64,000 bases of DNA from a virus (lineage: Duplodnaviria > Caudoviricetes): positions 256,001-320,000 of IMG/VR virus record IMGVR_UViG_3300017716_001697, one strand, 5' to 3'. Below, one piece after another: positions 2,809-30,727 of this stretch. How positions within the stretch are numbered: the stretch's first letter is position 1; every line of letters begins with the position of its first letter. The notes under the pieces are model-generated. The model saw only the letters and a program-made list of their open reading frames with translations, made no database searches and was not told where the DNA came from. The translations under genes and the position numbers were made by a program.

Positions 2809-3243
2809 ATGCGTACAGTAAACGGTAATTGGAGTGCAGTGGTTAAAGAACTGCGCAGGATCGTTGTAAAGCACACTCAGTTCGAGATGCAAGAGCATGC
2901 TCACGCTTTCAGTGATGTGATGTTTACTACAGACACATTCCACCCATTTGACTGTGAAGGTGAGCGTTTGATGGAGCGTGTACTGCGTGGTATGCCAGTG
3001 CGCTGCGACTATCGCAACTGTGAGTCACTTGCTACGTGGAAGGACTTCAAGGAACAGCTCATTGATGCAGTGTACATATGGTGTGTAGAGACAGAGTATC
3101 TCATTACTGATCACTACAACGATTCGTGGAACTTCGCACCCGGTTATGTGCGCCCAGCATCCATTAAGCATGATGATTGGTTGTGGGTAGCTAACAAGGT
3201 ATTCGCTCGTGTACATCGGGCAGCATTGAAAGGTATGAAATGA
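2809..3243 (+). CDS. hypothetical protein
   Basis: promoter cassette; start moved to the ATG after SD aaggag. Confidence 0.6.
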   Translation: MRTVNGNWSAVVKELRRIVVKHTQFEMQEHAHAFSDVMFTTDTFHPFDCEGERLMERVLRGMPVRCDYRNCESLATWKDFKEQLIDAVYIWCVETEYLITDHYNDSWNFAPGYVRPASIKHDDWLWVANKVFARVHRAALKGMK

Positions 3244-6650: not shown

Positions 6651-6711
6651 GATTGACACGGTAGATTGACAGTGTTATAATCTAAATGTTAGTAACAAAC
6701 CAGGAGTAATC

Positions 6712-8082
6712 ATGAAAGTTAGTCTTTTATCGGTAGTCCTTGTAGCATCTAGTATGCTACTTGGATGTGGTGGCGCTATGGAAGCCACTATCGTTGCAGC
6801 ACCGGAAGCTGTGACTCTTGCAGAAGCAGAAGAAGTGGGCGCGGAGCCATTTGGTAGTGTTGAAAGTACAGTGCTCTATATGACGCCTGCACAAGTTCGC
6901 ACACGATATGGATTCGACAGTTTGCCCAATACACCCGCTGCACAAGGCAGTGGCCAGCTGATTGCAATCATCAGCGCCTACAATAACCCGGACTTGGCTG
7001 CAAATTTGCAGGCATTCTCGGCCAAATACAACCTACCACAATGCACCACAGTGCCTACAGTATATACCCAGTTGCCTACAGGCTACACGGGGACGACTGT
7101 ATCGCATCCACCTACAGGCCGCGGGTGTACATTGCAAGTCATTAACGTGGATAGTTTTGGTCGGGTGACTAAGATGGTTCCACAAGGTGGGCCGGCAACA
7201 GCACCATGGATGATGGAATCCACTATGGACATTGAGTGGGCGCACGCAATTGCACCACAAGCAAGCATATTGGTAATTCAAGCACCCAGCATCTTTGTTG
7301 GTGCACTCGGTAATGCGGCAAAGTATGCAAGTAGCGTGGGAGCCGACGTTGTTTCAATGTCGTGGGGTGTCAATGAGACTTCACAACAATGTACACGCAA
7401 GCCCGGACAACCTACTGTGAAGTATGTTTCTACATGCGACGATGCGGCAACAGCAGCAAAATATTGGCAAACCGTGGACACTATGTTCGCTGGTTCGGCA
7501 ACATTTGTAGCGGCATCCGGCGACCGTGCAGTTCTACAGTGGCCATCCATTAGCCCTAAGGTAATGGCAGTCGGCGGCACGAATGCATATGGTCCAGCTG
7601 GCAAAGACACTGCATGGCCATTGTCAGGAGGCGGAGTTTCTAAATCGTTTCCTGCACCTAGTTGGCAAGCAAACCACATGAAGGCTGCAAACAGGAATGT
7701 ACCAGACGTATCACTTGTTGCTGGAACACCGGTGGCAGTCTACATCAAGCCAAATGCTAAGACTGGATTTGACGACTCAACTTGCGTAGCAGCGAAGGGT
7801 GAAAGTGGCTGTGGATGGTATGGTGGTGGTGGTACTAGTGCAGCGGCACCTATGTGGGCAGGCATTGTGGCAATCACTAATGCTATGCGTATTGCGGGCA
7901 GCATGAAGAGTACAGAGTTCGTTTCATCGTTATACACCAACGTCGCTAGTGTGCGCGGCACCTATGCATCTTCATTAGATGATGTTATAGTTGGAGCACA
8001 TGCTAATGAAGGATATGACATTTCGACAGGATTGGGTGTACCTAATGCCAACAACCTAATCAACTACATGGCATCACGATAG
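6712..8082 (+). CDS. S53 (sedolisin/kumamolisin-like) serine peptidase, probable lipoprotein
   Basis: signal peptide with LLGC lipobox; ESTMDIEWAHAIAP, ASGD and GGTSAAAP motifs. Confidence 0.8.
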   Translation: MKVSLLSVVLVASSMLLGCGGAMEATIVAAPEAVTLAEAEEVGAEPFGSVESTVLYMTPAQVRTRYGFDSLPNTPAAQGSGQLIAIISAYNNPDLAANLQAFSAKYNLPQCTTVPTVYTQLPTGYTGTTVSHPPTGRGCTLQVINVDSFGRVTKMVPQGGPATAPWMMESTMDIEWAHAIAPQASILVIQAPSIFVGALGNAAKYASSVGADVVSMSWGVNETSQQCTRKPGQPTVKYVSTCDDAATAAKYWQTVDTMFAGSATFVAASGDRAVLQWPSISPKVMAVGGTNAYGPAGKDTAWPLSGGGVSKSFPAPSWQANHMKAANRNVPDVSLVAGTPVAVYIKPNAKTGFDDSTCVAAKGESGCGWYGGGGTSAAAPMWAGIVAITNAMRIAGSMKSTEFVSSLYTNVASVRGTYASSLDDVIVGAHANEGYDISTGLGVPNANNLINYMASR

Positions 8083-8103
8083 TCTAAGCAACTATCTAAC
8101 AAG

Positions 8104-8126
8104 GGCGGTCTTCGGACCGCTTTTTC
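8104..8126 (+). terminator. Rho-independent terminator
   Basis: ggcggtc-ttcg-gaccgct + T run. Confidence 0.8.
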
Positions 8127-8185
8127 TTGACTATTCGTTGCGAGGCTGCTATAATGAATGCATAACTTAAACAGGAGACACATTT

Positions 8186-8431
8186 ATGTCATTCACAACC
8201 CTTACCTCTACCCAAAAGTCCTTCGTCGAGCAACATCTGCGAGGCACAGGTCGGGCATTGTCCGAAGCTCAAGCCCGCGAAACCTACGGCATCATGAATC
8301 TACGTGCTGTCGTTAGTTCAATGCGTGACTCGGGCTTAGTAGTACGCAAGCAAAAAAACACAGCTGGCCGTACTGCATATGCTATTAGCCGTAGAGACGT
8401 TGCAGGTGTTCAAAGCAAGATCTTTGCTTAA
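8186..8431 (+). CDS. small winged-helix/HTH-like DNA-binding protein
   Basis: LSEAQARETYGIMNLRAVVSSMRDSG pattern typical of small phage wHTH proteins. Confidence 0.55.
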   Translation: MSFTTLTSTQKSFVEQHLRGTGRALSEAQARETYGIMNLRAVVSSMRDSGLVVRKQKNTAGRTAYAISRRDVAGVQSKIFA

Positions 8432-8448
8432 CATCCAAAACGGGTAAT

Positions 8449-8477
8449 AAGAAGCCACCTTAGGGTGGTTTTCTTTT
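8449..8477 (+). terminator. Rho-independent terminator
   Basis: aagaagccacc-ttag-ggtggttttctt. Confidence 0.75.
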
Positions 8478-8611
8478 GGCTAAAATATCTGCAGAAATCT
8501 GTAGACAAGCAACTCTTCCTGCGTTATAATCAATACATGGACAGCAAGCAGTAACAAACAAGCAAGCTGCACATAAGTTAGTTTACTTTATTATCAACTT
8601 AGGAGTCTATT

Positions 8612-9061
8612 ATGACACAAGGTATCCGTGCTTTCACTATCGCTACTTTCAACGCAACCCTGCCACGTTTGGCTGAACTGGGCAACATCGCATTCCGTCG
8701 GGAAGTGATGGACCAGGCGATCATGGGTTTTGGTATCAGCGTTGCATCCGCTGCAACCCATTACAACCACGCACTGAAGACCGTGCGTGAAGCAAGCCCA
8801 GAAGCTGTGAAGGGCCTGGGTCGCCCCGAAGACAAGAAGGGCGGACGCAAGCCCATCCACTTGGTTGACGTGGTGAAGGCCAAGTCCGGCGATGTGGTTG
8901 CAACTGGTCTGAGCAAGGCTGCTGCTGAAGCAATGATTGCTGAAGCTGCTGCCAAGGGCAAGGTCAAGCTGGCTATCAAGGTAGTGGTTGACATGCCAGT
9001 CGCAGCTACCACTGAAGTGGCTACCACTGAAGCTGCACCTGCAGAAGCTGTTACTGCGTAA
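8612..9061 (+). CDS. Ala/Lys-rich hypothetical protein, paralogue of 15795-16217
   Basis: shares ASAATHYNHA and GLGR.EDKKGGRKP with the minus-strand copy. Confidence 0.75.
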   Translation: MTQGIRAFTIATFNATLPRLAELGNIAFRREVMDQAIMGFGISVASAATHYNHALKTVREASPEAVKGLGRPEDKKGGRKPIHLVDVVKAKSGDVVATGLSKAAAEAMIAEAAAKGKVKLAIKVVVDMPVAATTEVATTEAAPAEAVTA

Positions 9062-9096
9062 GCCGTAGCGGTAAGTACAAACAAGGCTCCCAAGCC

Positions 9097-9232
9097 TTGT
9101 TTGGGAATTGTGCCTGTATACTGAAGTCGGTCGTGAACAGCCACTAGGAAGAGTGTATCGTAGCAGATACGCGAAGAAGACTAGGCGGACTGTCGGAGAA
9201 GGCAAGCAGATGGCAGCGCAATTCCCAAACAA
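9097..9232 (+). ncRNA. candidate rod-shaped ncRNA
   Basis: 17-bp closing stem 9097-9113/9216-9232 with nested stems and purine-rich internal loops. Confidence 0.55.
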
Positions 9233-9238
9233 AGTTTA

Positions 9239-9400
9239 GCCCCTTTAGTTCAGCGGTCTAGAACGTCAGGCGAGGTGTTGATATACTAGTCAATACGCAT
9301 CAATGACATTGGGATTAACATTGCAGTGATCGGCCGGTTGCTGTGGTGCCTAGTGTGGTAAAGCTTGAAGACACTGGTTCGAATCCAGGGTGGGGTACCA
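9239..9400 (+). tRNA. tRNA-like RNA with 93-nt insertion in place of the anticodon loop (identity unassignable)
   Basis: acceptor GCCCCTT/GTGGGGT, D arm GTTC..GAAC, anticodon stem TCAGG/CTTGA, T loop GGTTCGAATCC, encoded ACCA end. Confidence 0.7.
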
Positions 9401-9438
9401 ATTGATAAATATGAACATACAGCTACACAGGAGTTCGT

Positions 9439-9660
9439 ATGTTACATATCATAGCAACTATCATAATCGGATTGATTTTCTGGCGTGCAGTCTTCTGGAC
9501 ACAAGAGAAATTGATGGTTTGGTTAGAAGAATCAGAGACAAAGGTCGTGGCAGGTAACGATAGAGTCCGAGAGTGTGCATGGTGGGCTGCAATTGGAGTT
9601 ATAGGTGTGTTTACAGTAGTGGCACACATGCTAACACAGTTGCTCATTTTTGCCTTATAA
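9439..9660 (+). CDS. small membrane protein
   Basis: two hydrophobic segments; SD aggag; GATAAATA at 9404. Confidence 0.6.
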   Translation: MLHIIATIIIGLIFWRAVFWTQEKLMVWLEESETKVVAGNDRVRECAWWAAIGVIGVFTVVAHMLTQLLIFAL

Positions 9661-9825
9661 ATCCACCTGATTTCGGTCTAAAAACAACTATACCAGACGA
9701 GTATAGTACACAAACATCTCACCTGAATTCACATAGCAAAATAACAAAGATAATTCTGAAAGATGGATTGACCTTTGTGCGTAAGTAATGTACACTATAC
9801 GCATATACACAAACAAGAGCCTAAC

Positions 9826-10062
9826 ATGCTTATTACGAAAACAATGGTGGAAACAGCGATGTGTCTACTTCCGCAAACTATCATTAACGCTTTCACCCGT
9901 AGTGGTTATTACGGTGAAATCATCCTTACTGCACAATTTAAGGGCATGACTACTACCGGTAAATTTGCGTACTGGGTAACATTCGGTGGCGACGATAACT
10001 GCGAGCCTGTTATGTGTTATGTATGTTTCAATGATGCAGGGGAATTTCTGGCAGACTATTGA
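9826..10062 (+). CDS. hypothetical protein
   Basis: ORF after leader-like sequence. Confidence 0.55.
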   Translation: MLITKTMVETAMCLLPQTIINAFTRSGYYGEIILTAQFKGMTTTGKFAYWVTFGGDDNCEPVMCYVCFNDAGEFLADY

Positions 10063-10112
10063 CAGGTTCCATCCTACACAGTATAATACATTAACGCAAC
10101 AAGGAGCACACA

Positions 10113-10505
10113 ATGCCCGCAAAACGTGATTTGTCAGACGTGTTAGCACAGTACATGGATGAGAACAAGATGCATTGTATGGAAGGCGTGCGGGGTGTTA
10201 ACGCCTTCGAGAAATTAGCACGCGCATTAGGCTACGACGGCAGCTGGAGCGCCAGCACATTGCACGCATTCCTGGAAGACAATTCTGGATGCATTGAAGC
10301 AATGATTGAATGGATTGGAAGCCGAAACAACCCGGATTGGAAGGCAGCTCTCGAATCCCAGATCTCGGATCCCGCCGCAGAGGAGCCCGAGAACGATGAC
10401 ACCTCGGAAGGGCCTGTGACTGACATCGACGGTGAACTCGAGGATGGGGAGATCGTTCTCGAGAATTTCGCAGGGAACACCCTGACTTTCAACAAGGCAC
10501 GATAA
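10113..10505 (+). CDS. hypothetical protein with acidic C-terminus
   Basis: promoter cassette with SD. Confidence 0.7.
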   Translation: MPAKRDLSDVLAQYMDENKMHCMEGVRGVNAFEKLARALGYDGSWSASTLHAFLEDNSGCIEAMIEWIGSRNNPDWKAALESQISDPAAEEPENDDTSEGPVTDIDGELEDGEIVLENFAGNTLTFNKAR

Positions 10506-10876
10506 CAGTAGACAACTGGTTCCAACTGCGTTATAATAGCACATCGCAACAAGGAGTACACAATGATTAAGTCTCAAAGTGATTCGGGCAAGTTTCGCAC
10601 AGCACTAAAGCGTGCAGGCTTTAATAATGATGGCCAAATCTTCAGCGACCCGCGCAAGAATACGCGCCGGTTGAAGATGTGGTTTGCTTCAGTTGTATTC
10701 GAATCCTCACCAAAGCAGCAACAGGTGCTGGAAAAATCCCTGAAGGAACTGTTCGGCGATCGCTACCTCACTGGGTACTTTATCCAACGCAGGTACTGGA
10801 CAGGCAACGGCAAGGCACTTTGCATCCGCCTGGCAAAGAAATAACAGTAGACAACTGGTTCCAACTGCGTTATAAT
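10502..10876 (+). repeat. 36-bp perfect direct repeat (10502-10537, 10841-10876)
   Basis: ataacagtagacaactggttccaactgcgttataat occurs twice, flanking one ORF. Confidence 0.9.
10563..10844 (+). CDS. basic hypothetical protein
   Basis: promoter cassette with SD. Confidence 0.7.
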   Translation: MIKSQSDSGKFRTALKRAGFNNDGQIFSDPRKNTRRLKMWFASVVFESSPKQQQVLEKSLKELFGDRYLTGYFIQRRYWTGNGKALCIRLAKK

Positions 10877-11018
10877 TAACGCTTAACAACAAGGAGTAGA
10901 TGATGAGTCAACGTAAGAACAAGCGCCGGATCTGTAACGCTGTCTGGGACATCAAGGTTGTCCCACAGTGGTTCAAGACAGGCTGCGGCCTCTAATCCCA
11001 CAACTACAGGAGTATAGC

Positions 11019-30264: not shown

Positions 30265-30455
30265 GTTATTCTGTACAATGTAAATATACAACTGACATTG
30301 AATATTATAAAACAATGAAGCAATGGTTGCTGGATACAGGCATGACGGCATGGCGTTGGGATGATGGGCGATATCGTATGATATTTGAAGATGAAATGGA
30401 TGCACTTACCTTCAAACTAAGATATCAGAATGATGTTGATGAGCAGAATATATGA
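30261..30455 (+). CDS. EEDA-F-L family small protein
   Basis: FEDEMDALTFKLRY. Confidence 0.7.
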   Translation: MSYSVQCKYTTDIEYYKTMKQWLLDTGMTAWRWDDGRYRMIFEDEMDALTFKLRYQNDVDEQNI

Positions 30456-30727
30456 TACTCGTAGATGTTAATTCACCTAAATTTAACTATCCTGCACCGT
30501 GGGATAAATTTGTTAAGGTTGCTGATGCTCTGTGGTCGGAAAGGTTTAGACACGCAGAGTGGCGTGATTTTTTAGATGCGCAGTTACTTGATATGGGTGC
30601 AGTAAATATAATGAATACCTATTACATTGAGTTCAAAGATAGGAGTGATGCCCTTGCGTTCATACTCAAATTTGGTGGCATCTATGAAGATCGTGAATTG
30701 ACACCGGACGACGATGGCAGCGTATAA
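30452..30727 (+). CDS. EEDA-F-L family small protein
   Basis: FKDRSDALAFILKFG. Confidence 0.7.
   Translation: MILVDVNSPKFNYPAPWDKFVKVADALWSERFRHAEWRDFLDAQLLDMGAVNIMNTYYIEFKDRSDALAFILKFGGIYEDRELTPDDDGSV

Follow-up and report, generated by a model that had tools for sequence, protein, structure and literature searches.

A tRNA-shaped RNA element with a conserved, folded insert in place of the anticodon loop, predicted in a freshwater jumbo phage

The element described here is located in the genome of a jumbo phage from a freshwater metagenome. The record is 364,576 bp long with direct terminal repeats, and the window, i.e., the whole stretch of 64,000 nucleotides analysed, covers its positions 256001–320000. 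ARAGORN counted 45 ordinary tRNA genes across the genome, together with one tmRNA-like gene. Most of the tRNA genes were in the first 56 kb, with two at 211–216 kb and none in the window; as called by ARAGORN, the set spans all 20 amino acids, including Tyr-GTA and Leu-TAA, and contains a CUA suppressor. The tmRNA-like gene, near genome position 30.5 kb, is separate from the element, which stands alone amid protein genes, about 50 kb from the nearest ordinary tRNA gene. An RtcB gene (PF01139; genome 212810–213937, 427 bits) was flanked by tRNA-Arg(TCT) and tRNA-Met, and the proteins adjoining it had no Pfam matches. Searches of the phage genome for the EndA family (PF01974) and for TROVE/Ro60 returned no match, and Rfam at gathering thresholds gave no match anywhere in the window.

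The features surrounding the element, in window coordinates, were the following.

8502–8530 (+): sigma-70-like promoter of P0001, from a promoter scan
8612–9061 (+): P0001, the upstream gene, encoding 149 aa without a Pfam domain, with 584 homologues
9102–9227 (+): rod-like structured RNA; 42 pairs by RNAalifold, five of them changed on both sides
9404–9411 (+): GATAAATA box, 3 nt past the CCA of the element, taken as the 3' limit of the RNA unit
9439–9660 (+): P0003, the downstream gene, encoding a predicted membrane protein of 73 aa

Invariant in the large P0001 family are the motifs AATHYNH and DKKGGRKP; an Ala-rich tail is a further feature, and two or three paralogues are found in several related jumbo phages. 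The homologue of P0003 in the relative L004 was 48% identical. Further upstream, a gene for a 456-aa subtilase (Peptidase_S8; window 6712–8082, + strand) is an accessory insertion: the relative L002, collinear elsewhere, lacks it, and the alignment with L002 skips from 6669 to 8059; as a protein query in IMG/VR, this peptidase found no homologous loci.

Between the rod-like RNA and the GATAAATA box, positions 9239–9400 (+ strand, 162 nt) carry the acceptor, D and T arms and the CCA of a tRNA, with 93 nt in place of the anticodon loop. A first-pass annotation had put these 93 nt at 9271–9363, and they can be read there directly in the sequence. Syntenic DNA was fetched via the 584 homologues of P0001, and one relative lineage, about 87% identical to the window locally, carried the element as identical copies in four samples (L002, L003, L048, and L049). 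The parts of the element were as follows.

9239–9245 (+): 5' strand of the acceptor stem, GCCCCTT, pairing with 9390–9396
9248–9264 (+): D arm, GTTC, loop AGCGGTCTA, GAAC, a 4-bp stem with GG in the loop
9266–9271 (+): 5' strand of the anticodon-stem equivalent, TCAGGC, closing the insert and pairing with 9363–9368
9272–9301 (+): HP1, a hairpin variable in sequence with its fold kept
9302–9305 (+): junction strand AATG between HP1 and HP2, invariant in both variants
9306–9356 (+): HP2, an outer helix of 8 bp and an inner one of 13 bp, separated by a 5-nt AUUAA bulge and capped by a GGCC loop
9357–9362 (+): junction strand GGTAAA between HP2 and the closing stem, invariant in both variants
9363–9368 (+): 3' strand of the anticodon-stem equivalent, GCTTGA, partner of 9266–9271
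9373–9389 (+): T arm, ACTGG, loop TTCGAAT, CCAGG, a canonical T loop on a 5-bp stem
9390–9400 (+): 3' strand of the acceptor stem, discriminator A9397 and encoded CCA (9398–9400), identical in L002

The frame had the 7-bp acceptor stem, the D arm with GG, the TTCRANY T loop and the discriminator with CCA of a tRNA, the exceptions being U6.U67 and A49.G65. Its acceptor stem held G1.U72, U6.U67 and U7.G66, with C3–G70 as the third pair. G1.U72 and U6.U67 were present in both variants, while U7.G66 became C7–G66 in L002; G1.U72 with A73 is common to the phage's own Leu-TAA, Val-TAC and Ile-TAT tRNAs. T8 and A9 followed the 5' strand of the acceptor stem and preceded the D arm, in which the pair C13–G22 was U.G in L002. 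The TCAGG/CTTGA stem gained a sixth pair, C9271–G9363; three of its six pairs had changed in L002, all still paired, one of them by a double change from A–U to G–C. The variable region measured 4 nt. These parts, from the acceptor stem with its U.U and G.U pairs through T8A9, the D arm and the TCAGG/CTTGA stem to the CCA, agreed with the first-pass reading, both by inspection and in an intron-tolerant ARAGORN search. The T loop TTCGAAT was canonical as well; the first pair of its stem (A49.G65) was an A.G mismatch in both variants.

ARAGORN in default mode found no gene in the window, the element included. With introns allowed, as the first-pass annotation had proposed, it detected the element and called a tRNA-Tyr(GTA) with an 84-nt intron in both variants. 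The anticodon loop of this call, UGGUAAA, has a G at position 33 and would require a cut at position 31/32; it corresponds to TGGTAAA, which overlaps the GGTAAA junction strand.

Between 9271 and 9363, the insert was predicted to form a three-way junction with two hairpins rather than the three hairpins initially described. The proposed caatg/cattg hairpin would have a 1-nt loop, and its bases belong to the first junction strand and the 5' strand of HP2. The gcagtgat/gttgctgt pairing makes up only the inner part of HP2, the fold of which was concordant between MFE and RNAalifold predictions. The folding energy of 9266–9368 was -37.1 kcal/mol (z -3.1) on the + strand and -11 kcal/mol (z +2.1) on the - strand. 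Because many pairs are G.U, the helices of HP2 and of the insert form on the + strand only, indicating that the structure belongs to an RNA and is not a DNA palindrome. The insert also contains a small ATG ORF (9303–9329) of eight codons, seven in the L002-type relative; the claim that it has no tag ORF was accurate in that nothing resembling tmRNA was found, but this trivial frame does exist. No further copy of the insert occurred elsewhere in the phage genome, and a repeated or mobile insert was rejected on this basis. Contig cover of 9194–9409 came from X10 only, the X2, X3 and X4 contigs being without that stretch. One 15.5-kb X10 contig, labelled RNA-Seq but probably DNA, spans 8600–9816 with 145 differing letters and 32 gaps; it runs continuously across the insert with no insert-skipping joint and is uninformative on splicing.

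The two variants differed at 25 of 162 positions. Among the 49 modelled pairs, 12 differed between the window and L002 and none was broken, eight having changed on one side and four on both; of the two-sided changes, one was in the closing stem and three were in HP1 (alignment columns 37–60, 39–58, and 40–57). Standard pairs occupied 95.9% of pair cells, compared with 36–51% when the 3' partners were slid by 1–3 columns. This covariation is a single pairwise comparison, as just two sequence variants were found. HP1 kept its hairpin although half of its inner positions (13/26) differed, and CUAG were the only loop bases shared. Of the 62 positions in HP2 and the junction strands, 4 had changed, as opposed to 8 of 71 in the tRNA frame; these parts of the insert were also more conserved than the flanking coding DNA. 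Within HP2, the outer helix and AUUAA bulge were invariant, whereas the inner helix had four one-sided changes with pairing kept. On the basis of these sequence comparisons, the element appears to be a structured RNA of the + strand, with selection acting on the RNA fold, and the compensatory changes back the original view of a tRNA-shaped RNA with a structured domain for an anticodon loop. By the same single pairwise comparison, the insert appears at least as constrained as the tRNA frame, which argues against neutral decay and is unlike the usual protein-spliced intron. The first-pass annotation had named random decay of the insert among homologues as the finding that would speak for a pseudo-tRNA; the homologue and covariation analysis contradicted it.

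The element was missing from about 25 other syntenic relatives, and its absence from most of the syntenic set implies that it is dispensable for this phage group. A covariance model (R1) built from the two variants and run over 28 syntenic loci matched L002 alone. Over five whole related phage records, R1 recovered ordinary tRNAs only (Phe-GAA and Ala-TGC in one record, Leu-TAA and Leu-CAA in another) and no second element. Comparison of 8000–11000 with phage GenBank records by blastn gave no homologue, an exact 25-mer of the T arm and acceptor stem had no further copy in IMG/VR, two insert k-mers gave only chance matches in unrelated contexts in IMG/VR, and two patterns had no match in JGI metagenome contigs. 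Cluster members of the neighbouring protein yielded only copies identical to L002.

The slot after the P0001 homologue was occupied differently among the relatives. In L004 and L006, just a terminator stood between the P0001 homologue and that of the 73-aa gene; in L008/L009, the slot was filled by a NUMOD3 homing-endonuclease gene; in L011, it contained the upstream rod-like RNA without the tRNA-like element. Other strongly folding non-coding DNA (z -8.5) was observed in the slot of L010, and a 48-aa ORF in that of L013. Judged from this synteny, the element is best described as a lineage-restricted addition in a variable intergenic slot.

The rod-like RNA had a conserved basal helix, conserved TATACTGAAGT..GTCG and GGCAAGCAGA segments, and a variable apex. 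Its tail, CCAAACAAAG, stops a few bases short of G9239, with 11 nt between the end of the rod and the 5' end of the tRNA-like element, and the two are probably on one transcript. The rod was the more widespread of the two, with a homologue in L011 at about 2986–3095. A further hairpin (9080–9101) stands between P0001 and the rod. No GATAAATA box or strong promoter match was found between P0001 and the element, so that read-through from the P0001 promoter is the likeliest source of transcription; the element would then most likely be transcribed from the sigma-70-like promoter at 8502–8530. A TGTATACT motif at 9115 was rejected as a promoter, as it does not recur and is inside the rod helix. 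Genome-wide, 60 copies of GATAAATA were counted on the + strand, where about 12 would be expected, and 16 on the - strand, usually 20–35 nt ahead of Shine-Dalgarno sequences and start codons, and also right before several tRNA genes. GATAAATA is probably a phage-specific promoter box, analogous perhaps to the T4 late TATAAATA, and its copy at 9404–9411 probably serves the 73-aa gene P0003.

Several known classes of RNA did not fit. The element is not a canonical tRNA (RF00005), as 93 nt stand at the loop position and Rfam gave no match, to tRNA or to any other family, even at E up to 10; descent from another tRNA of this phage by recent duplication was also rejected, the best match, Ile-TAT, being weak. 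Group I introns were taken to have about 200 nt or more, a P3–P9 core, a U preceding the 5' splice site and a G as the last base. The insert, as first noted, is too short at 93 nt, did not match Intron_gpI at E up to 10, and has no U before the 5' junction, the junction bases being C, G, A, and G. In contrast, the tRNA-Leu(UAA) of the same genome (218359–218648) has a 205-nt intron after U34, a classical group I site. Self-cleaving ribozymes (hammerhead, twister, pistol, hatchet, and HDV-like) gave no match at E up to 10, and by reading, the CAAUGA and GGUAAA strands do not suit the CUGANGA and GAAA core of a hammerhead junction. A mini tmRNA-like RNA, one of the possibilities initially raised, was discarded: the third acceptor pair is C3–G70, G3.U70 being absent as originally stated, ARAGORN -m returned zero, and there was no pseudoknot or tag, the 8-codon ORF varying in length in L002. 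A Y RNA of the YrlA type was rejected in turn, as the genome has no TROVE gene, both ends of the RNA are at the acceptor stem, and Rfam gave no Y RNA match (E up to 10). The architecture, in which a closing stem carries the folded insert while the acceptor, D and T arms are retained, is that of a tRNA scaffold, understood as a structural class and not a homology family.

Reading of codons by the element is almost certainly impossible because the anticodon is absent. The explanation we favour, with roughly an even chance of being correct, is that the element is an unspliced, non-decoding, natural "tRNA scaffold" RNA of about 162 nt in which the insert is the working module. The reading is suggested by an architecture that matches the engineered tRNA scaffold, and the phage has no need of the element for decoding, its ordinary tRNAs serving all 20 amino acids. 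In the element, the three arms (acceptor, D and T) would form a tRNA-like elbow with a 12-bp acceptor/T stack, and this frame should suffice for an RNase P cut at G9239. Host enzymes for 3' trimming, CCA upkeep and tRNA modification would presumably treat the RNA as a tRNA, conferring stability. The 6-bp closing stem would present the three-way junction, with HP1 as a structural arm free to change in sequence, and HP2, its AUUAA bulge and the AAUG and GGUAAA strands most likely forming a putative module that docks a phage or host protein. The U.U acceptor and A.G T-stem mismatches might weaken recognition by tRNA enzymes. LeuRS, AlaRS and SerRS do not require the anticodon, so charging would be possible; given the lack of G3.U70 and the short variable region, LeuRS, with A73, is the only obvious candidate. 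A decoy against tRNA-directed defences is a possible function, because the element occupies an accessory slot and may be expressed early. Such a mimic or decoy role, put forward in the first-pass annotation, is compatible with everything seen, with no tie to PrrC or another particular nuclease.

In a second explanation, which we consider rather unlikely, the insert is an intervening sequence cut out by a phage or host endonuclease or by a new small ribozyme, after which RtcB would rejoin the halves into a decoding tRNA, nominally Tyr-GUA (UGGUAAA) or Leu-UAA. The ARAGORN call of a tRNA-Tyr(GTA) in both variants is consistent with this, and the phage RtcB is a ligase that could in principle complete splicing. 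The genome also has the tRNA-Leu(UAA) with its 205-nt intron and a number of over-long tRNA-like genes, and Lak megaphages are reported to have conserved "enigmatic" tRNA introns, one of them in tRNA-Tyr(GTA) (PMC6784885). However, manual enumeration yielded no pair of cuts from which a 7-nt loop with U33 would result, in line with the initial statement that U33 is absent: with CGAGG at the 5' start and GGTAAAG at the 3' end of the insert, any 7-nt loop has G33, as does the ARAGORN solution. An exhaustive excision scan with ARAGORN accepted many arbitrary cuts with no shared canonical loop and was uninformative. By reading, the junctions have no bulge-helix-bulge motif (3-nt bulge, 4-bp helix, 3-nt bulge), and the EndA family is absent, so that the protein-spliced intron suggested at first is disfavoured despite the presence of RtcB. 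Neither a group I nor a self-cleaving ribozyme match was obtained, as described above, and HP2 has changed less than the putative exons, whereas protein-spliced introns typically show the reverse. Moreover, the phage already has both Tyr-GTA and Leu-TAA tRNAs.

Unlikely as well is that the tRNA shape serves mainly as a processing signal in cis, like MALAT1/mascRNA or mitochondrial tRNA punctuation, the released piece being a by-product. A cut by RNase P at 9238/9239 would define the 3' terminus of the P0001 transcript, with the rod as a protective 3' cap, and would separate the downstream message. The position of the element points in this direction: it lies 11 nt past the conserved rod in the 3' region of P0001, ends 3 nt ahead of the GATAAATA promoter box, and no promoter of its own was found, while the rod without the element in L011 indicates separable modules side by side. 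Yet for such a signal a conserved 93-nt junction would be superfluous, since an ordinary tRNA or a minimal acceptor/T hairpin would be enough; relatives do without it, L004 with a plain terminator and L011 with the rod alone; and transcription would have to continue past the hairpin at 9080–9101.

A distinctly unlikely extension of the scaffold explanation joins the two structures into an early-expressed, two-part RNA cassette in a variable accessory slot, in which the RNase P cut at 9238/9239 would yield a rod-capped P0001 message and a stable, CCA-ended scaffold whose HP2 and junctions would trap a host factor, such as a defence nuclease directed at tRNAs or an enzyme that modifies or charges them. 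If true, the phage would possess a hitherto undescribed kind of RNA tool for counter-defence or host takeover.

Finally, a pseudo-tRNA in which a neutral insertion, e.g., a small palindromic element, disrupted the anticodon loop, with decay pending, might be suspected from the narrow distribution (two variants, absent from about 25 syntenic relatives and from the pattern scans), the acceptor and T stem mismatches and the variable slot with homing-endonuclease genes in other relatives, but appears very improbable given that at about 13% local divergence every stem change keeps pairing, four of them by double compensation, that HP2 and the junction strands outdo the flanking coding DNA in conservation, that the G.U-dependent helices exist in the + strand RNA only and make no DNA palindrome, and that the L002-type copy is identical in four samples.

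Other over-long tRNA-shaped stretches were observed. In this genome, these were a 204-nt stretch (30422–30625) with a near-perfect acceptor stem and ACCA, overlapping the "permuted tmRNA" call of ARAGORN, a 154-nt stretch ending in CCCA (219270–219423), and a Phe-like stretch that lacks CCA and has about 40 additional nt 3' of GAA (219635–219752). The related record G002 contained, on its - strand, a 121-nt CCA-ended tRNA-shaped gene with a non-tRNA middle (273852–273972) and a 147-nt gene that ARAGORN called "tRNA-Thr(GGT) with a 70-nt intron" (253367–253513). The presence of odd over-long tRNA-shaped genes in a related 369-kb phage as well shows that this genome is not alone in having them.

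Genes for tRNAs are numerous in large phages, and a growing number of these are tRNA-like yet unable to decode. The tRNA genes of T4 include in their cluster those of the species 1 and 2 RNAs (rnaC and rnaD), which are stable, longer than 100 nt, made through the tRNA-processing pathway, non-decoding and long unexplained. The element differs in standing alone and not among clustered tRNAs. In YrlA-type Y RNA, often linked to RtcB, a tRNA-like module is joined at the anticodon-stem position to a protein-binding helix; its acceptor stem is closed, and both ends of the RNA belong to the stem that binds Ro. Here, by contrast, the ends are at the acceptor stem with CCA, and the genome has no Ro60/TROVE gene. 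The element shares with tmRNA an acceptor/T-arm frame, a CCA and a large non-tRNA insertion in the body, but tmRNA has G3.U70, pseudoknots and a tag frame and is without D and anticodon stems, the opposite of the situation here.

Engineered tRNA scaffolds, in which a foreign RNA takes the place of the anticodon stem-loop, are processed and accumulate in E. coli, as the cell handles them like tRNAs (PMC3753655). As in these constructs (Ponchon and Dardel), the acceptor, D and T arms are kept and a structured RNA sits on the closing stem. The constructs are man-made, whereas the phage element is natural, has a conserved cargo, and carries mismatches in its acceptor and T stems. The nearest published description is that of the tRNAs of Lak megaphages, which contain "enigmatic", highly conserved introns, one in tRNA-Tyr(GTA) (PMC6784885, Devoto et al. 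2019). In both cases the phages are huge, a conserved, unclassified insert in the anticodon region is seen only by intron-tolerant predictors, and no Rfam class fits; one of the Lak cases shares the tRNA-Tyr(GTA) call. However, the Lak inserts were described as excisable, restoring typed tRNAs, whereas here no excision gives a canonical loop; the sequences are unrelated, and the phage groups differ, those of Lak being from the gut and the present one from freshwater.

From the sequence comparisons, the element thus seems of a kind known in outline and represents a new variant with an unrelated insert and unusually good covariation support. Its narrow distribution limits present claims, and it adds to the poorly understood tRNA look-alikes of large phages a clean case, with an intact tRNA frame, an insert more conserved than that frame, and compensatory changes. 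If the insert were excised after all, it would imply a new tRNA splicing route in bacteria. If it is instead a protein-binding module, phages would have reached the same "tRNA scaffold" design as RNA biochemists, and, were the scaffold explanation true, a class of RNA effectors would be hidden among mis-annotated or unannotated phage tRNA genes.
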